Counted from the first letter of the stretch, positions 31,771 through 37,815 are shown. The stretch is 64,000 bases of DNA from Escherichia phage KKP 3954 (OR067838.1), one strand, 5' to 3'. The notes: generated from the letters alone by a model not told the origin. Translations and numbers: made by a program.

Positions 31771-31956
31771 TCAACTAGGAATAATTTTATCCCTTTTGGT
31801 TTCATAACCAGTCCAATCTAAATCCTCCCAGCCTTCATCATCGTCTAACACATTGTCATCGTCATAAGATGCAATGTTATAAATAGAACGTGGATTACAA
31901 GACATACAATCTTTAATAGGCACATGATGCCATTTGCACGGATTATCACTAATCAT
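31771..31956 (-). CDS. small Cys-rich acidic protein
   Basis: 61 aa, CKWHH and CMSCNP motifs. Confidence 0.25.
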   Translation of the reverse strand: MISDNPCKWHHVPIKDCMSCNPRSIYNIASYDDDNVLDDDEGWEDLDWTGYETKRDKIIPS

Positions 31957-32433
31957 TGCACACCTCCATTCTTGTTAAGATGTTTCATGTATTGTACTTC
32001 ATACTAATCTATAGATCAAGTATTATTTATAATAATTTATTATTTTAATTGATAGAAGTTGATCTATACATACCAGTTCTGATACACTGTACCTGTTTGT
32101 TAGATCTAATAATTATTTATTATTAATATTTAATAATTATTAATCTAATACGAATGACAATATTTGAGTATGAGAGTACTACATCAACAACCTAAAACCT
32201 TAACTCGCTGCGCTCGTTAATAGATTTCTAGGGTAGCATACTTCGAACACAAAAGTCAAGTGTTTTATTAAAATTATTTTCTGTGTGCAAAAACCTTGCT
32301 TAAACAGGTAGCAATAGTATAGCCTATAACATAAGCTTCATAAGAGGCTCGTAGAGCAAGTTTACTTACTAGGTAAGGTGATTTATCATCTTATATATAA
32401 AAAGTGCGTCAGAGACGCGTTTAGGAGGCTAGA
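31957..32433. promoter_or_regulatory. AT-rich divergent control region
   Basis: About 480 bp without ORFs between minus and plus gene blocks; TAATAATTATTTATTATT-type repeats, palindrome GATCTATAGATC, inverted repeat GCGTCAGAGACGC before first RBS. Confidence 0.4.
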
Positions 32434-32757
32434 ATGAGATTTACAAGACAAGAGGTGGTTGTGCTGGACGAAGCAATGACAATGATCGTCTTTTACTATG
32501 AGGATATCTTCTGTGCAGCATATCATTTAAATGACATTCAGATTGAATGGCAGCAGATAGCATTCCTGTTGGACAAGAGTAATCATTTAGATGGCTTTGA
32601 GTATTTGGAGTGGGATGGTGCAAAGGAAGTTAAAATTGTAGGGTTAAATCACGATCAGATTGTTGACATGCAATGTAAGTTGTGTCATTATCAGTTCTCA
32701 AATAAAGTTAAACTCGAAAGGCAACTGGAGGTAGTTAAAGATGATAGCACTAATTAG
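32434..32757 (+). CDS. hypothetical early protein
   Basis: 107-aa ORF with AGGAGG RBS. Confidence 0.3.
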   Translation: MRFTRQEVVVLDEAMTMIVFYYEDIFCAAYHLNDIQIEWQQIAFLLDKSNHLDGFEYLEWDGAKEVKIVGLNHDQIVDMQCKLCHYQFSNKVKLERQLEVVKDDSTN

Positions 32758-32853
32758 TGAGCATCCAATCCTGGCAACAATTGTTCTGATTTTCGCCATT
32801 TGTGTGGTTCACGATGTTCTGGTAAGCTATTTTGACAACAAAGGAGGTAAGAA

Positions 32854-33048
32854 ATGAAAGACGTTATTCAAATGGTATTCCGTGTCACCCTGGATGATAT
32901 TCATGTTGTTAAAGGCACCCAGAACTACACAGAAGCGAAAGAACATTTCCTGGAATGGGTTGAGACGTTGAAGACACAAAACGTTTCCTACAACCGTGTG
33001 ACGCTCACTGGCGACCATACCCCAATCATGGAGTACGTAAAGAAATGA
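32854..33048 (+). CDS. hypothetical early protein
   Basis: 64-aa ORF with RBS. Confidence 0.3.
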   Translation: MKDVIQMVFRVTLDDIHVVKGTQNYTEAKEHFLEWVETLKTQNVSYNRVTLTGDHTPIMEYVKK

Positions 33049-33284
33049 GCAAATATCCAATTACAGGTGTAACCTATTCTTGTGTATCCAAAGGTGGCTT
33101 ATATACGGTCGTGGAATTTCCAAAACCTGCCGGAATATCTAAAGTGTTTGATCCTGTTGTTATCTATGAAGATCTTAGAACAGGTCAACGTTATTGGAGA
33201 TTTGTGAATGACTTTTTAGATCGTATGGAGGTAGTAAGTGGCGAAAACACCGAAGAAGTTATCAAAGCCAAAGAACGTTACTAA
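33045..33284 (+). CDS. hypothetical early protein
   Basis: 79-aa ORF, translationally coupled. Confidence 0.3.
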   Translation: MSKYPITGVTYSCVSKGGLYTVVEFPKPAGISKVFDPVVIYEDLRTGQRYWRFVNDFLDRMEVVSGENTEEVIKAKERY

Positions 33285-33591
33285 GAAACCGAAAAACGAG
33301 GTTCTCAAAGTAGCCAAATCAGTTCCTAAGAAAGATAAATTTGATACGGAGGCATTCGTCTTTGACACACCAATCGAGAAGATTGAAGAAGCGTTGCAAC
33401 GTCTTGAGGAGCAGGAGGCAGATCCAATGGCTGAACCACTCACGGCAGACCAAATTTATTGGTGGGGAATATGGACTTTGCAACTACCAGAAGCAAAAAG
33501 AAGAGGAATGACTTCAGTTCCTACTTGCGCAAAAGAAGCGGCTGTGTTAGGTTTGTATGAGAAATCTAAAAAGAGGAGCAAAAAGAAATGA
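33238..33591 (+). CDS. lysine-rich basic protein, possible nucleic-acid binder
   Basis: 117 aa, Lys-rich at both termini. Confidence 0.3.
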   Translation: MAKTPKKLSKPKNVTKKPKNEVLKVAKSVPKKDKFDTEAFVFDTPIEKIEEALQRLEEQEADPMAEPLTADQIYWWGIWTLQLPEAKRRGMTSVPTCAKEAAVLGLYEKSKKRSKKK

Positions 33592-33869
33592 TCAAGACTT
33601 TCCTGAAGTGTGTAAAAGCAACAGATAATGAGTGGTACTCTGGATTATTCACTGCTGGCAAGAAATACGAGATCCTCAACGGGACAGGCAAGAAGTTTTC
33701 TCTCGTTATAAACGATGAAGGCACGAAGCAAATGGTATTTGCTGAAAGTTCTGTTTATGGTATTTTTGAAGTAGTGCAAGAAGGCTCTCCAATGATTCTG
33801 GAGTATCATGGCACTAATAAACCATATACTGCTATGGATGTTATCAACAATAAGAGGAATGCAAAATGA
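33588..33869 (+). CDS. hypothetical early protein
   Basis: 93-aa ORF. Confidence 0.3.
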   Translation: MIKTFLKCVKATDNEWYSGLFTAGKKYEILNGTGKKFSLVINDEGTKQMVFAESSVYGIFEVVQEGSPMILEYHGTNKPYTAMDVINNKRNAK

Positions 33870-34048
33870 TTTTACTTTATTCCGGTAAGGCGAAATACAT
33901 GCAAGGTGTTAAACGTGTAGAGGTTACTAAGACAGTAACAATCGGAAAATCTTTTATAGTTTATTATTTCATTATTAATGGGAAGGAGTATGCTGTAGCA
34001 AAGACCTTGGTTGATAATGGTAAAACGTGGAAAGTGGAGGCACTATGA
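33866..34048 (+). CDS. hypothetical early protein
   Basis: 60-aa ORF. Confidence 0.25.
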   Translation: MILLYSGKAKYMQGVKRVEVTKTVTIGKSFIVYYFIINGKEYAVAKTLVDNGKTWKVEAL

Positions 34049-34251
34049 TCCCTGTAGCTGGGTGGGTGGTATTGGCAACACTTAATGGGAATGTTACTGT
34101 GGAGACTAAAACCATCTTCAAAGCACCAGAAGATTGCTATAACTCCTTGGTAACTTGGCCTCGTGACGAGGATGATAAGGCAGAGTATCAGTGTTTTTAC
34201 ATTGAGGGTAAGCCTGTAGAATTTGAGGTTAAAGTGAAGGAGGAAAAATGA
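34027..34251 (+). CDS. hypothetical early protein
   Basis: 74-aa ORF. Confidence 0.3.
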   Translation: MESGGTMIPVAGWVVLATLNGNVTVETKTIFKAPEDCYNSLVTWPRDEDDKAEYQCFYIEGKPVEFEVKVKEEK

Positions 34252-34718
34252 GAATTAAAGTAACTAAAGCTTACGATGATAACCCGAAGTTTATCTCTTT
34301 GAATAAGAGTTATGGTGTCGAAAACGGCGATGAGTTCGAGGTTATCGATCTTTTTGAGGACCACGGTTATATTGTCAAAGCCCCAATCACAGAGCAGGCT
34401 ATTATCATCTTACGCACAGAGGCTGTTGAGGTAGGTTCTGATGAGCCTCAATATGACAGCCCATACATGACAGAGTGGATTGTGGCTGTAGATGTTGGAG
34501 GCAGGGTTTCTGTATTGAAAGCTCCTAATCTCCATCCTAGTTTTACAGAGAACGGTAAGACAGCTTTGGATTATGGGTTGCCAGAAGATGTTGAGAATAC
34601 ACCGCCAGGTATGTACCGTTGGATTTGCTCTTTCCATGAAGAGAAGGATTGGGAATCAGGGCTTGTTGATGATTGGCATTTTGAAGTGGAAAGTTCTTTT
34701 TTAATCATGCCAGCTTAA
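34248..34718 (+). CDS. hypothetical early protein
   Basis: 156-aa ORF. Confidence 0.3.
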   Translation: MRIKVTKAYDDNPKFISLNKSYGVENGDEFEVIDLFEDHGYIVKAPITEQAIIILRTEAVEVGSDEPQYDSPYMTEWIVAVDVGGRVSVLKAPNLHPSFTENGKTALDYGLPEDVENTPPGMYRWICSFHEEKDWESGLVDDWHFEVESSFLIMPA

Positions 34719-34728
34719 AGGAGGTTAT

Positions 34729-35073
34729 ATGAAAGTTTGGATAGATGATATGCGGAACCCAGCCGACTATGGACAGGAAGATGCAATTTGGTTTAAAACG
34801 TCACAAGAAGCTATGGCCTTTCTCAATGATCCTGCTAAACTGTATCGAAGAGTAACCGAGTGGTCTTTTGACAATGATTTAGGTATGGAGTCAGACCAAG
34901 ATGGGTATGATGTTTTCCTGCACCTGGAAGAACTTCTGGCGTTTGGTAAACCTTGCTTTGGTTCACCTACCATTTTCGTGCATACTTCTAATCCCGCCGC
35001 TGGGGATAAATTCATGCTTGCAAAAGAATCCATGCTGCGTTATGGTATTAAAATGATTCGTGTGCACTACTAA
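34729..35073 (+). CDS. hypothetical early protein
   Basis: 114-aa ORF. Confidence 0.3.
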   Translation: MKVWIDDMRNPADYGQEDAIWFKTSQEAMAFLNDPAKLYRRVTEWSFDNDLGMESDQDGYDVFLHLEELLAFGKPCFGSPTIFVHTSNPAAGDKFMLAKESMLRYGIKMIRVHY

Positions 35074-35232
35074 GGAGAGAACATGCATCATTTGGTTTGG
35101 TCGGAACAAGAAGAGGACGAAGGTTACTTTATCTACCGAGAAGAAGAGGATTGGCCCGACACAAGTAATGATCTTTTACTTCCAGACACTAGTTTTTTCG
35201 AGGATAACTTAAGAGAGGAGGATTAGGAAACA

Positions 35233-35589
35233 ATGAGTGGTATTGAAAACAACATTTGTTACCAACCTCTTACCTGGATGGGTGAGGGTCATTATGCGCA
35301 ACGTGTTATCGTCTGTGCTGCAAATAAGTATATTTTGAATAATGGTGAAGAGTTAATTATTCCTTGTGTTCGACATGCAAATCCTGTACTATATGCACAG
35401 TTAAACGTGTTGAAAGAAGCAGGTGTAATCAACAAAACTTTGTGCACACCAGATAATCAAGGCTTTATCGATCAGTATTACAATTGGTGGAGTCGTGCGG
35501 ATGCTTACATCATCGCGGAAAATGCTGACCAGATCGACCATGAGCGTAATGGTCACGACCATGAATTATTTAGCGAGGGATTATACTAA
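35233..35589 (+). CDS. hypothetical protein
   Basis: 118-aa ORF with RBS GGAGGA. Confidence 0.3.
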   Translation: MSGIENNICYQPLTWMGEGHYAQRVIVCAANKYILNNGEELIIPCVRHANPVLYAQLNVLKEAGVINKTLCTPDNQGFIDQYYNWWSRADAYIIAENADQIDHERNGHDHELFSEGLY

Positions 35590-36140
35590 TGTTTATTACA
35601 AGCGATTTGCATTTTATGCATAAACGTATTCGAGAGTTTGCTCCTGAATATCGTCCCTGGGAAGATATGGACCACATGACAGAAGCCTTGATCGAAGCAT
35701 GGAACAAATGTGCTACTACTCCTGGTGTTAAGATGTGGCATTTGGGCGACTTCTGTTTCGGAACTGAAGAAGATACCCGTAAAATTGCTTCCCGTCTCCA
35801 AGGAGATATCACCTACTGTGTTGGGAACCATGACTACAGCAAACACCGAGAAGTGCTTGCAGAGTATGGAGAAGTGGTGTATTATGACGAAGTGAAATAT
35901 CAGAAGCTGTTCTTCGTCTTAAGCCATTACCCTATGGCCTCCTGGAATAAACAAGGTCGTGGATCAATCATGCTACACGGGCATTCCCACGGATCTTTCC
36001 CTGATGAAGCTTATGGTAAAATGTTAGATGTGGGTTGGGATGCACACGGAAAAATCTTGCATTTTGATGAGATAATTTCTATGATGAGTAAACGAGATAT
36101 CGTGACTGTAGACCATCACAAAATAATCAAAGGAGAGTAA
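35589..36140 (+). CDS. calcineurin-like metallophosphoesterase
   Basis: Motifs SDLHF, GDFCFG, GNHD, GHSHG. Confidence 0.6.
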   Translation: MFITSDLHFMHKRIREFAPEYRPWEDMDHMTEALIEAWNKCATTPGVKMWHLGDFCFGTEEDTRKIASRLQGDITYCVGNHDYSKHREVLAEYGEVVYYDEVKYQKLFFVLSHYPMASWNKQGRGSIMLHGHSHGSFPDEAYGKMLDVGWDAHGKILHFDEIISMMSKRDIVTVDHHKIIKGE

Positions 36141-36141
36141 T

Positions 36142-37074
36142 GTGACTAAATTTAATTGCGACGATTTGGTTGAAAAAGGTTTAGTTCATAAGAAAACATA
36201 TAAAGAAGGAGAGTATTCTGGTCTATCTGTTCTTAAGTATAAGAACAAAGTTTTCTGGGATAACTTATGGAGCATTGATTCTCGTCTTCTAGAATGTCGC
36301 GGAATCGTTGTTGATGCTGATGACAATGTTGTTATTTGGCCTTTCACTAAGATTTTTAATCGTTTTGAGAATGGCACAGATCTACCATTGGATGAACTTG
36401 TAGATGTGGTTCGTAAAGTAAATGGTTTTATGGCCTCTGTAGGTGTATATAAAGGTCAACTTATTGTATCGACAACAGGAAGCCTTGAATCAGATTTTGC
36501 AAGTATTGCAAAGAATCGTATTGTTTCAGAGTGTGATGACATAGAACATTTCATCAAATGGACAGAGAGTGCAAAAGCAACTTTCCTTTTTGAAATCTGT
36601 GATCCTTCTGATCCGCATATTGTCGAAGAAGAACCAGGTGCATACTTAATTGGTGCCAGAATTCAAAATCCTGATGGGACAAGTTTTATGTTACCTGAAG
36701 GTGCTCTTGATGGAATTGCTTCTGTCACCAAATTTAAGCGTCCTGAAGTTCATCCAATGGTTAAGTTTTCAGATGTTGTTGAAATGTCTAAACATTGTAA
36801 ACACGAAGGGTTTATTGTTCGTGAAACAAACTGTCCGTTTAACTTACTTTTAAAGATTAAGTCACCATACTATCTTACTAAGAAGTTTCTTATGCGTGGT
36901 GGAGATAAGAAGTGGGATCTTATTTGGGATAATCCAAAAAATGCCAAACAAATTGTTGACGAAGAATATTACACTTTGTTAGAATGGATTCGAAATAATT
37001 TTACGAAGACTCAATGGGCTGCTTTAAATCAGCAAGAGCGACGTGAAGAAATCGAAAACTTCTTTGGAGGATAA
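36142..37074 (+). CDS. RNA ligase, T4 Rnl1-like
   Basis: LLECRGIVVD and motif I KVNG, EGFIVRE, LLLKIKSPYY parallel T4 RnlA blocks. Confidence 0.6.
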   Translation: MTKFNCDDLVEKGLVHKKTYKEGEYSGLSVLKYKNKVFWDNLWSIDSRLLECRGIVVDADDNVVIWPFTKIFNRFENGTDLPLDELVDVVRKVNGFMASVGVYKGQLIVSTTGSLESDFASIAKNRIVSECDDIEHFIKWTESAKATFLFEICDPSDPHIVEEEPGAYLIGARIQNPDGTSFMLPEGALDGIASVTKFKRPEVHPMVKFSDVVEMSKHCKHEGFIVRETNCPFNLLLKIKSPYYLTKKFLMRGGDKKWDLIWDNPKNAKQIVDEEYYTLLEWIRNNFTKTQWAALNQQERREEIENFFGG

Positions 37075-37479
37075 ATGAAACAACTTATCATTTTACGTGG
37101 TGTTTCAGGTGCTGGTAAATCTACAGTAGCAGAAATTATTTCTGAAGGTTATTGGCCTATCTGCGAGGCAGATCAATATCATTACACAGAAAGTGGTGTT
37201 TACGATTGGAAGCCAGAAAATGTAGGTAAAGCACACGCATGGTGTCAGAGTATTGTTCGTGATGCTATGGCGTCTAATCTTAACAAGATTATTGTTTCTA
37301 ACACTTCAACCACAGAGAAAGAACTTAAACCTTATCTAGCTCTTGCTGAAGAGTTTGGTTATCAAGTTATCTCTTTAGTTGTTGAAAATAGGCACGGTAA
37401 TGATTCAATTCACGAGGTTCCACAATATATCCGTGATCAGCAAGAGAAACGTCTTCGTGGTTCACTTAAACTTCAATAA
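37075..37479 (+). CDS. polynucleotide 5'-kinase (P-loop)
   Basis: Walker A GVSGAGKST, IVSNTS block like T4 Pnk kinase domain. Confidence 0.55.
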   Translation: MKQLIILRGVSGAGKSTVAEIISEGYWPICEADQYHYTESGVYDWKPENVGKAHAWCQSIVRDAMASNLNKIIVSNTSTTEKELKPYLALAEEFGYQVISLVVENRHGNDSIHEVPQYIRDQQEKRLRGSLKLQ

Positions 37480-37488
37480 GGAGAAATA

Positions 37489-37815
37489 ATGCAGATTTAT
37501 ACAGATGATCGTAAATATGAGACAATTTTAGATGAAGATACTGGACGAATTACCGTTCTCCGTCACGGTGAAGAGTGGCGTGATGAAACGGGAGACAATT
37601 ATATCTTGTCTCTGATTCATCTTATTGAACAAATGCGTGATGATTACGCTGAACTGCATTATGAAAATGAGGCGAATAAAGTAAAATTTGAAAATGAATT
37701 AGAAGAGAAAGAATCTGAAATGGTATATCTAAAAGAAGAGATCTCCCGTTTGGAGGAAGAGATTGATGCTCTTCAGGAAGAGATTTACGAACTCAACAGC
37801 GAACTGAATGCTTAA
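37489..37815 (+). CDS. coiled-coil protein
   Basis: 108 aa, Glu-rich heptad C-terminus. Confidence 0.3.
   Translation: MQIYTDDRKYETILDEDTGRITVLRHGEEWRDETGDNYILSLIHLIEQMRDDYAELHYENEANKVKFENELEEKESEMVYLKEEISRLEEEIDALQEEIYELNSELNA

Follow-up and report, generated by a model that had tools for sequence, protein, structure and literature searches.

Clusters of small early genes close to a promoter are familiar from virulent phages, as in the class I genes of T7, the pre-early region of T5 and the early ORFs of T4. In T4, tRNA repair by Pnkp and Rnl1 counters the anticodon nuclease PrrC, a paradigm in which RNA repair is a counter-defence function; the bacterial Pnkp is a triad of kinase, phosphoesterase and ligase. 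In phages of the V5 and Mydo type, Iyer, Burroughs, Aravind and co-workers have described predicted RNA-repair and NAD-ADPR neighbourhoods centred on the cREC (cyclic-phosphate-processing receiver) domain, and these do have a sirtuin or KptA partner (PMC7824862, PMC9503650). cREC itself was without biochemical characterisation as of 2022 (PMC9503650), and our literature search found no later experimental paper on it.

The window analysed here, a stretch of 64,000 nucleotides, belongs to a Phapecoctavirus (phAPEC8-like myovirus), with 97.5% identity to Phapecoctavirus genomes and about 97% to dozens of genomes in GenBank. The tRNAs and the genes for lysis, terminase, head and tail lie in its left arm, and those of DNA and RNA metabolism in its right arm. 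At 32434-35230, a reading made from the sequence alone had proposed about twelve tightly packed, translationally coupled ORFs of 37-156 aa. The block of small ORFs holds up, with a corrected count: eleven co-oriented ORFs of 38-156 aa (o1 to o11) span 32434-35226, and a twelfth, o12, begins at 35233, all on the plus strand like the three genes beyond. The proposed packing, coupling and good ribosome-binding sites are borne out by GGAGG-like Shine-Dalgarno sequences before all 11 ORFs and by their junctions: six are ATGA overlaps of 4 nt, at two more the genes overlap by 17 and 47 nt, and the remaining two are gaps of 9-10 nt. There is no block boundary at 35230; o12 and the genes for a phosphoesterase, an RNA ligase and a kinase continue without a gap, and the rightward unit runs from the small ORFs through the predicted RNA-repair module to DNA ligase and exonucleases and on to thymidylate synthase and ribonucleotide reductase. 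Gene calls for the block are identical in the relatives ESCO37 and SKA64, corresponding to phAPEC8_00139 to 00129, and the GenBank entries of relatives already list the ORFs as hypothetical proteins. Synonymous changes are many, and dN/dS is 0.04-0.30 for o1 and o3-o10 in most comparisons with diverged relatives. The eleven small genes form a real and conserved series that opens the DNA/RNA-metabolism arm of the known phAPEC8-like type; the block is ordinary and already known, and there is nothing new in it. What the genes do is a separate matter, and here we think it on balance probable that o1-o9 are small lineage proteins and that o10 and o11 open an RNA-repair module. The region would then be the promoter-proximal part of a long, phAPEC8-like rightward non-structural unit, its eleven genes falling into two parts.

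As the earlier reading had placed it, the block lies directly after a divergent region and at the head of the non-structural arm. This intergenic control region (31957-32433, 477 bp) has divergently oriented flanking genes, coincides with a flip in the sign of the GC skew and contains AT-rich repeats and palindromes. An invariant element at 32204-32243 is kept across genera in a six-genome alignment and occurs as a single copy in the window. Two candidate rightward sigma-70-like promoters, both weak matches, lie at about 32297-32325 (TTGCTT...TATAGC) and at 32361-32389 (TTTACT-17-TATCAT), and a hairpin at 32406-32418 stands directly 5' of the o1 ribosome-binding site. The promoter scan found no enrichment of sigma-70-like sites (27, against 23.3 +/- 5.3 in shuffled sequence), and an Rfam search of the control region gave no match. 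Position and the weak sigma-70-like matches are what suggest that the block may be expressed early; for this phage group or subfamily the literature yielded no transcriptome, one of the searches having been poorly framed. Across the same control region, Justusliebigvirus and Mydo carry NAD-salvage genes.

The first gene of the rightward unit, o1 (32434-32757), encodes an acidic protein of 107 aa (pI 4.7; phrog_14390) that occurs in 132 phage records, all of Stephanstirmvirinae type, with dN/dS of 0.04-0.30 and no match in Pfam, NCBIfam or the PDB. It is followed by o2 (32741-32857; 38 aa; phrog_26968), whose single hydrophobic segment reaches a Kyte-Doolittle 19-residue maximum of 2.73 and which is predicted to be a membrane peptide, in agreement with the membrane-embedded short product first read from the sequence; it is genus-specific and absent from Justusliebigvirus ESCO32. 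The product of o3 (32854-33048; 64 aa; phrog_15683) is 52% identical in Justusliebigvirus and shows dN/dS of 0.06-0.26 in two comparisons, with 0.65 in a third, low-divergence pair that has only 9 differences. A small DUF1653-like domain of 79 aa is encoded by o4 (33045-33284), where the likeness to Pfam DUF1653 (E=0.099, 13.5 bits) stays under the 23.5-bit cutoff and one GenBank record names a homologue as a DUF1653 domain protein; o4 is found in 134 phage records with dN/dS of 0.10-0.18.

The lysine-rich ORF that had been singled out at 33238-33591 is confirmed as such. This gene, o5, starts with GTG, overlaps o4 by 47 nt and encodes 117 aa of which 19% are Lys, 13 of them among the first 35 residues. 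In the alignment a variable Lys/Pro/Ser-rich N-terminal tail precedes a conserved core with an acidic helix and rich in Trp, and a basic C-terminal tail follows, an architecture from which we infer that o5 probably binds nucleic acid. The gene is present in 337 phage records, Vequintavirinae and Mydovirus included. In a set of 1.84 billion representatives the family of o5, clustered at 50% identity, forms only 27 clusters; 26 of the 27 cluster representatives are stand-alone proteins of 79-133 aa, and the weakest match (E=1e-4) has 463 aa. It has no match in Pfam or NCBIfam, its homologues carry no Pfam domain, and a PDB profile search was negative. The GenBank label of transposase is unfounded, there being no Pfam or NCBIfam domain in o5 and no Pfam domain in its homologues.

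Beyond o5, the beta-rich o6 (33588-33869; 93 aa; phrog_10169) has weak partial matches to other small-domain PHROGs, occurs in 122 phage records, is replaced in phage tuntematon and shows dN/dS of 0.14-0.16. The basic product of o7 (33866-34048; 60 aa; phrog_15376) is 74-76% identical in Justusliebigvirus, with dN/dS of 0.05-0.09, and the acidic o8 (34045-34251; 68 aa; phrog_15821; dN/dS 0.06-0.07) is genus-specific and accessory, being absent from both Justusliebigvirus and tuntematon. Also genus-specific and accessory is o9 (34248-34718; 156 aa), in which an N-terminal SH3-like beta-barrel is joined to a C-terminal DUF8046 beta domain; PF26219 / DUF8046 is precomputed on all 68 homologues, and the BFVD matches are named DUF8046 proteins. 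One NCBI name of a homologue suggests a GyrI-like or integron-cassette effector-binding domain, a candidate that we rejected on finding that o9 lacks the alpha+beta GyrI-like fold. Only o2, o8 and o9 look accessory among o1-o9, and o6-o9 as a group are exchanged for other genes in tuntematon. Separately, homing-endonuclease or extra-gene insertions and a gene-by-gene mosaic of dS values mark the region as recombination-active.

In Pfam, PHROGs, NCBIfam (searched with all of them but o2) and the PDB (searched with o1, o5, o6 and o9), none of o1-o9 matches a family whose function is known, and the best PHROG match of every ORF in the block is of unknown function. These proteins are lineage-restricted and small, with small beta-barrels, one membrane peptide and one Lys-tailed likely nucleic-acid binder among them; their size and folds suggest that they most likely bind macromolecules of the host or the phage stoichiometrically, or modulate them, and they would be made at the first transcription of the arm.

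There are two other readings of these genes. According to the first, which the sequence-only reading had favoured from location, the whole of o1-o11 would be an anti-defence or host-takeover island in which each protein inhibits a host immune or housekeeping factor right after DNA entry. The position beside the divergent control region and the small, tightly coupled genes fit such an island, as do the genus-specific o2, o8 and o9, the swap of o6-o9 in tuntematon, the acidic character of several products and the active recombination to which insertions and mosaic dS point. The homologous arn cluster of T2/T4 is moreover suspected of counter-defence (bioRxiv 10.64898/2026.06.19.733364), and that suspicion also counts in favour. 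Against it, all ORFs searched in Pfam and PHROGs, and all but o2 and o11 searched in NCBIfam, gave no anti-restriction, anti-defence or host-takeover family (Ocr, ArdA, Arn, Acr, Tad, Acb, Atd1/MazG and others), and PDB sequence and profile searches with o1, o5, o6, o9, o10 and o12, which cover the solved structures of Ocr and Arn, were negative. In the BASEL study the relatives in Vequintavirinae and the phi92-like group were "exceptionally susceptible" to restriction-modification systems, which argues against a conserved anti-restriction protein in the block (PMC8594841). Conservation of o3-o7 across two genera and of o5 across two subfamilies, under strong purifying selection, is not the pattern of anti-defence islands, which typically turn over rapidly. 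Furthermore, the known anti-defence and trigger proteins of the subfamily map elsewhere: Atd1 resembles MazG, a domain that the block lacks, and Ksap2 sits between ribonucleotide reductase genes. We therefore regard an island made up of all eleven genes as unlikely. The earlier proposal is supported in part: o10 and o11 lie in a predicted RNA-repair module, and the homology check that accompanied the proposal did not go against it, since Pfam, PHROGs and NCBIfam assigned no ORF to a structural or replication function.

The other reading takes o1-o9 as accessory factors that serve the gene expression or DNA metabolism of the phage itself rather than as effectors against the host or its defences. 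They might, for example, act on host RNA polymerase as transcription-switch factors, or o5 might organise phage nucleic acid as a DNA/RNA-binding protein. These genes open an arm otherwise given to nucleic-acid metabolism, purifying selection on them is strong, and o5 is kept across the whole rV5-like supergroup in the manner of the surrounding enzymes, with Lys-rich tails typical of nucleic-acid binders. Phages of the rV5 type have no recognisable late-transcription factors of the T4 type, which means that their temporal regulators are still to be identified and which we count for this reading (PMC3606486). However, o1-o9 contain no DNA-binding Pfam domain, whether helix-turn-helix, sigma-like or of another kind, and o2, o8 and o9 are dispensable at the genus level. 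We hold accessory factors of this kind to be possible, though not likely.

The second of the two probable parts begins with o10 (34729-35073; 114 aa). Where the first reading had seen no recognisable motifs in the block, o9 carries PF26219 and o10 carries the cREC domain, matching PF20274 (cREC_REC) with E=6.7e-17 and 62.4 bits against a 27-bit cutoff and covering positions 1-83 of the 88 in the model; for the tuntematon homologue the score is 53.6 bits. Copies from three clades (the window, tuntematon and ESCO32), only 46-50% identical overall, share the motifs W-[IL]-D-D-x-R-x-P, F-D-N-D-L-G and V-H-T-S-N-P, and with strands placed according to the published topology, the predicted receiver-type acidic residues (an Asp pair after strand 1 and an Asp after strand 3) are intact. 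Homologues of o10 occur in 350 phage records. Genes of the cREC family are associated with RNA ligase, kinase or NAD-ADPR genes and are never paired with a histidine kinase, and the setting of o10 agrees. Within 2.4 kb downstream of it lie the genes for phosphoesterase, Rnl1 ligase and kinase, and in both Mydo and Bas58 cREC likewise stands beside or near an RNA ligase and a kinase. As a predicted phosphoesterase, o10 would act on 2',3'-cyclic phosphate or on ADPR>P (PMC7824862, PMC9503650).

Always found between the cREC gene and the Arn.3-like gene, o11 (35083-35226; phrog_18323) encodes an extremely acidic peptide of 47 aa, 36% of it Asp+Glu, and in every clade this place is taken by an acidic ORF, about 45-50 aa long. 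Identity to the window copy is about 26-28% in phiWec190/186, tuntematon and Bas60 and 80% in ESCO32; ESCO32 and Bas60 are both Justusliebigvirus. One may ask whether the smallest ORFs, o2 and o11, are chance frames between real genes. At 38 and 47 aa they are very short, o2 has a dN/dS of 0.2-0.6 from too few substitutions for a test and is unannotated in some GenBank records, and the identity of o11 between clades is only about 26%. Both nevertheless have good ribosome-binding sites and fit exactly between their neighbours. The frame of o2 is intact and its hydrophobic core conserved in all five Phapecoctavirus loci checked, unannotated ones included, and the persistence of an acidic ORF at the o11 position in all clades is accompanied by mainly synonymous change against ESCO32 (18.5 synonymous and 12.5 nonsynonymous differences). 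We find it very hard to believe that either is a chance frame.

Just outside the block, o12 (35233-35589; 118 aa) belongs to the T4 Arn.3 family (PF26092), which spans about 1,500 sequenced phages including T4, and is about 45% identical to T4 Arn.3. Many GenBank records label this type of gene "anti-restriction nuclease", an annotation drift that stems from the T4 gene name arn.3. The gene is followed by a calcineurin-like metallophosphoesterase (35589-36140; PF00149, PF12850; phrog_547) predicted to heal RNA 3' ends, a T4 Rnl1-type RNA ligase (36142-37074; PF09511, E=3.5e-15; phrog_562) and a P-loop kinase of the AAA_33 type (37075-37479; PF13671; phrog_2071) that resembles polynucleotide kinase (phrog_505, 2.7e-8). 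The kinase is a stand-alone protein of 134 aa and differs from the bifunctional Pnkp, in which kinase is fused to a HAD 3'-phosphatase. A corresponding gene set is present at the equivalent place in Justusliebigvirus, Mydovirus and Vequintavirus, and o12, phosphoesterase, ligase and kinase are contiguous in 114 phage records (at least 80% coverage), most of those with the block. The tie of o12 to RNA repair consists of adjacency only, which does not hold in T4 or Mydo.

Taking these genes together, o10 and o11 would head a module for RNA end healing and sealing that consists of cREC, the acidic peptide, the Arn.3-like protein, the calcineurin-type phosphoesterase, the Rnl1-type ligase and the P-loop kinase. 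Host metal-independent ribonucleases, such as anticodon nucleases, would leave 2',3'-cyclic-phosphate and 5'-OH ends on tRNA; cREC and/or the metallophosphoesterase could open the cyclic phosphate and remove it, the kinase would phosphorylate the 5' end, and the ligase would reseal the RNA. The outcome would be a functional analogue of T4 Pnkp and Rnl1 countering PrrC. We draw this mechanism from domain identities and from published comparative genomics.

A competing view is that o10, o11, o12 and the metallophosphoesterase degrade small-molecule immune signals or by-products instead of acting on RNA ends, with ligase and kinase as a separable add-on; cyclic ADPR phosphates, cADPR isomers or cyclic (oligo)nucleotides could be the substrates. 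Ligase and kinase are missing at the locus in phiWec179/186/190, tuntematon and a few others, where cREC, o12 and the phosphoesterase are kept, so that these three may do something that does not depend on RNA ligation; the persistence of the four-gene unit in such genomes speaks for this view, as does the phiWec179 genome, which at blastn sensitivity matches only o12 and the phosphoesterase. Iyer et al. predicted that cREC acts also on 1''-2'' cyclic ADPR phosphate and noted fusions to Nudix domains (PMC7824862, PMC9503650). Likewise, o12 has a confident structure model with enzyme-like invariant polar residues (Arg-His, Gln, Arg and Ser-Glu-Tyr) and a fold with no PDB match, and the NAD-salvage genes across the control region in Justusliebigvirus and Mydo would fit. 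On the other hand, o12 and phosphoesterase are contiguous with ligase and kinase in most block carriers, a diverged ligase may lie elsewhere in the ligase-less genomes, and CBASS still restricts Bas60, a relative that has the module, unless Acb5 is supplied. Signal degradation in this sense seems to us improbable. The related proposal, that the same four genes form a self-contained counter-defence module destroying a nucleotide-derived immune signal or an RNA-damage product, we rate as quite improbable; if true, it would make the Arn.3 family a new enzyme class.

Compared with known systems, the block resembles the early clusters of T7, T5 and T4 in being small, tightly packed, mostly orphan and downstream of host-type promoter candidates. 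It differs from them in that no member matches a characterised early effector, its timing is taken here from position, and most members are conserved at the subfamily level instead of being hypervariable. With the middle-gene cluster arn.4-arn.3-arn.2-arn.1-arn of T4/T2 the locus shares an Arn.3 homologue, o12, and a run of small genes, whereas a PDB search revealed no homologue of Arn (the McrBC inhibitor) among o1, o5, o6, o9, o10 and o12. As with T4 Pnkp and Rnl1, three activities are predicted, those of a 5' kinase, of a 3' end-healing enzyme and of a ligase in the Rnl1 family (PF09511), but on separate polypeptides, with a kinase that lacks the HAD phosphatase and with an extra cREC. In its calcineurin-type phosphoesterase the window corresponds to bacterial Pnkp, whose healing domain is of this type, and not to T4. 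The V5/Mydo neighbourhoods differ in gene order; the window array, like the whole 64-kb window, has no sirtuin, KptA or MazG partner, it has an Arn.3-family gene and the acidic 47-aa peptide intercalated, and some of its sister genomes have lost ligase and kinase and kept cREC, Arn.3 and phosphoesterase. Like those neighbourhoods, it places o10 co-directional with an Rnl1 ligase, a P-loop kinase and a calcineurin-like phosphoesterase, and as in Mydo and Bas58 the array heads the metabolism arm, next to DNA ligase.

Megablast with the stretch 31900-35700, which spans the divergent intergenic spacer (31957-32433) and eleven plus-strand ORFs that we call o1-o11 (32434-35226), matched 126 phage records, the top ones 97.5% identical at 100% query coverage, and all 126 are phAPEC8-like myoviruses of about 150 kb (Phapecoctavirus, Stephanstirmvirinae). 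The annotations of ESCO37 and SKA64 give the same gene calls as our ORF list, corresponding to phAPEC8_00139 to phAPEC8_00129. The layout is that of ESCO37: on the minus-strand left side lie three small ORFs, ten tRNA genes and the lysis, terminase, head and tail genes, on the plus-strand right side the small-ORF block, an RNA-repair set, DNA ligase, exonucleases, thymidylate synthase and ribonucleotide reductase, and the sign of the GC skew flips at about 32 kb. The locus is already known, being a near-copy of genes that more than 100 deposited phage genomes already carry under the name hypothetical, and the block is a real, typical promoter-proximal run of small genes in a well-sequenced genus that holds no surprise for specialists. 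Phages named for Campylobacter, Acinetobacter or Pseudomonas (MG065650.1 B15 and OP562383.1 ABPW7 among them) share about 97% identity here with E. coli phapecoctaviruses, and the host labels of these records look doubtful.

The ORFs are genuine genes. When they were compared pairwise with phiWec190, phiWec186, tuntematon and the Justusliebigvirus ESCO32, dN/dS for o1 and o3-o10 was mostly 0.04-0.30, with dS up to about 1, and the single higher value (0.65, o3 against phiWec186) comes from only 9 differences. Too few changes have accumulated in o2 for such an estimate; it is intact throughout the Phapecoctavirus loci, even where GenBank leaves it unannotated, and its hydrophobic core is conserved. 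The position of o11 is in every case taken by an acidic ORF of about 45-50 aa. The good ribosome-binding sites and tight coupling described in the sequence-only reading were confirmed, as all the ORFs have a GGAGG-type Shine-Dalgarno sequence and six junctions an ATGA overlap. Its lysine-rich ORF is o5 (33238-33591, GTG start; 19% Lys, with 13 Lys within residues 1-35), and its short membrane-type product is o2, for which a hydrophobicity maximum of 2.73 over 19 residues predicts that localisation. The count of about twelve ORFs by 35230 needs adjusting, since eleven (38-156 aa) lie within 32434-35226 and the twelfth, o12, begins at 35233; nor does the block close there as a unit, for 35230 is no natural boundary.

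In position and architecture the block is compatible with an early operon. Sigma-70-like sites were no commoner in our promoter scan than in shuffled sequence; the top rightward candidates, TTGCTT...TATAGC at about 32297 (TTGTGT...TATAGT in the phiWec phages) and TTTACT-17-TATCAT at 32361-32389, are only moderately good, yet positionally conserved. Among phages with published transcription analyses rV5 is the closest, and in it the expected bidirectional promoters were not found at the equivalent junction (PMC3606486). Within the spacer, a GC-rich element at 32204-32243, CTCGCTGCGCTCGTT...CTAGGGTAGCATACTT, is invariant in Phapecoctavirus and Justusliebigvirus, and the AT-rich sequence around it has diverged. 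It has no Rfam match and occurs once in the window, which rules out a repeated phage promoter, and it could serve as a regulatory site or as an unusual promoter. Directly 5' of the o1 ribosome-binding site lies a hairpin (GCGTC-aga-GACGC, 32406-32418), and because ESCO32 holds an unlike one at the same place (AGCTC-gttaca-GAGCT), the stem has been preserved although its sequence is wholly different. Read on the minus strand, the window's hairpin is terminator-like, with a T-run after it. A 38-nt AT-rich direct repeat (32007-32044 and 32104-32141) and several near-perfect palindromes (32007-32144) could be origin or UP-element-like sequences; they coincide with the flip in GC skew. Across the divergent region, Justusliebigvirus and Mydovirus carry the NAD-salvage genes for nicotinamide/nicotinate phosphoribosyltransferase and PRPP synthetase (L008 399-3097, L009 1-1121 and L011 15142-17840 in our set of relatives' loci), whereas the window has small ORFs and tRNAs there.

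Conservation differs from gene to gene. By tblastn, o1, o4 and o6 were found in 132, 134 and 122 phage records, Stephanstirmvirinae only, o5 and o10 in 337 and 350, Vequintavirinae too, and o12 in 1525, T4-like phages among them. Justusliebigvirus has o1 (44% identity), o3-o7 and o10-o12 and is missing o2, o8 and o9, and tuntematon retains o1-o5 and has other genes in place of o6-o9. From presence and absence across these relatives, only o2, o8, o9 and partly o6 and o7 behave as accessory genes, and the remainder is lineage-core. In some relatives extra genes have entered the block at junctions: ESCO5 carries a free-standing HNH homing endonuclease at the o5/o6 junction (L013 1324-1929), SKA64 a 202-aa gene at the o9/o10 junction (L002 5834-6442), and phiWec190 a 70-aa gene that separates o1 from the promoter region (L005 2716-2928). 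Against one single relative, the dS of neighbouring genes can be as low as 0.07 or as high as about 1.0 (window 32434-35589 against L005 and L006), and o1 is 93% identical to its counterpart in phiWec190 and only 58% in phiWec186. As dS varies in this way against the same relative, the spread indicates mosaic recombination, with gene-by-gene allelic exchange.

The sequence-only reading had guessed at host takeover or anti-defence for the whole block, and this is somewhat disfavoured as a blanket reading of o1-o9. Their PHROG matches are all to families of unknown function, with no NCBIfam and no significant Pfam match (o4 has a weak DUF1653-like one), and sequence and profile searches of the PDB with o1, o5, o6, o9, o10 and o12 returned nothing below E=0.08. 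Pfam searches of the replacement and insert genes of tuntematon, SKA64, phiWec186 and ESCO32 gave nothing except another cREC. The variable-length Lys/Pro/Ser-rich N-tail, conserved acidic-helix and Trp-rich core and basic C-tail of o5 suggest to us nucleic-acid binding. A profile search of 1.84 billion representative proteins placed it in a narrow family, 27 clusters at 50% identity, in which no domain fusion is confident: 26 are stand-alone proteins of 79-133 aa, and the weakest match (E=1e-4) is a 463-aa protein aligned in five short stretches. In the BASEL study Vequintavirinae and phi92-like relatives proved "exceptionally susceptible" to restriction-modification (PMC8594841), which speaks against any of o3-o7 being a conserved anti-restriction protein. 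Those small proteins of the subfamily that have been studied by experiment also sit elsewhere: the MazG-like Atd1 has no counterpart in it, and Ksap2 (bas60_0220) lies outside it, between ribonucleotide reductase genes.

A counter-defence role is plausible for the genes led by o10 (34729-35073), and the guess as a whole is partly supported. The same reading had seen no recognisable motifs, which fails for o10: it matches Pfam PF20274, the cyclic-phosphate-processing receiver domain or cREC, at 62 bits against a cutoff of 27, the only functionally meaningful hit in Pfam, NCBIfam and PHROG scans of the block, and its receiver-type acidic motifs WxDDxRxP, FDNDLG and VHTSNP are kept among copies just 46-50% identical. 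One recent GenBank record already names a homologue cREC. On its 3' side follow o11 (47 aa, 36% acidic), the T4 Arn.3-family protein o12 (35233-35589), a calcineurin-like metallophosphoesterase (35589-36140), an Rnl1-family RNA ligase (PF09511; 36142-37074) and a stand-alone AAA_33 P-loop kinase (37075-37479). T4 Pnkp and Rnl1 counter PrrC, and by analogy such an RNA-repair module would be counter-defensive. Some relatives, namely phiWec179, phiWec186, phiWec190, tuntematon and a few more, retain cREC, the acidic o11 peptide, the Arn.3-like o12 and the phosphoesterase, and have neither ligase nor kinase in the interval from the phosphoesterase to DNA ligase (window 36142-37479; L005, L006 and L007); in phiWec179 a search at blastn sensitivity found a second match nowhere in the genome. 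The four retained genes may therefore have a function independent of RNA ligation.

Several GenBank names here are misleading, and wrong ones have propagated among relatives for the cREC gene, o5 and 37489-37815. The cREC gene is labelled "putative RNA ligase and tail attachment protein", "transposase-like" is baseless for o5, and the "DNA polymerase I" or "hol-like chemotaxis" product of 37489-37815 is really a 108-aa acidic coiled-coil protein. The name "anti-restriction nuclease" misleads for o12, which is Arn.3, a gene distinct from T4 Arn, and whose confident structure model has no PDB neighbours. Phapecoctaviruses are components of cocktails for phage therapy directed at APEC and ESBL E. 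coli, and host-range engineering would be helped by knowing which small genes are dispensable and which counter-defensive. The practical use of our analysis is a cleaned map, with four GenBank labels corrected and the conserved o3-o7 and o10-o12 split from the accessory o2, o8 and o9, and cREC and the Arn.3-like protein are tractable targets for biochemistry.

The block's sole identifiable module had been predicted beforehand by comparative genomics. Iyer and colleagues defined cREC and predicted that it opens RNA 2',3'-cyclic phosphates or cyclic ADPR phosphate, and described V5- and Mydo-type neighbourhoods in which it accompanies a T4-like tRNA ligase, nucleotide kinase, sirtuin, MazG and sometimes a calcineurin-like phosphoesterase (PMC7824862, PMC9503650); our literature search found no biochemical study of it. 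Because o10 and the genes downstream match that neighbourhood, the 3' end of the block is the start of this known, computationally predicted RNA-repair module. In Mydo and the Vequintavirus Bas58, cREC adjoins the ligase, with kinase, phosphoesterase and Sir2 nearby, and the module occupies the same site as in the window, beside a divergent control region and upstream of DNA ligase; in Bas58 the other strand encodes the kinase and phosphoesterase, immediately across the divergent junction. The window differs from the V5/Mydo-type neighbourhoods in having no detectable sirtuin (tblastn with the Mydo and Bas58 Sir2 proteins), and is like them in grouping cREC with a ligase, a kinase and a phosphoesterase.
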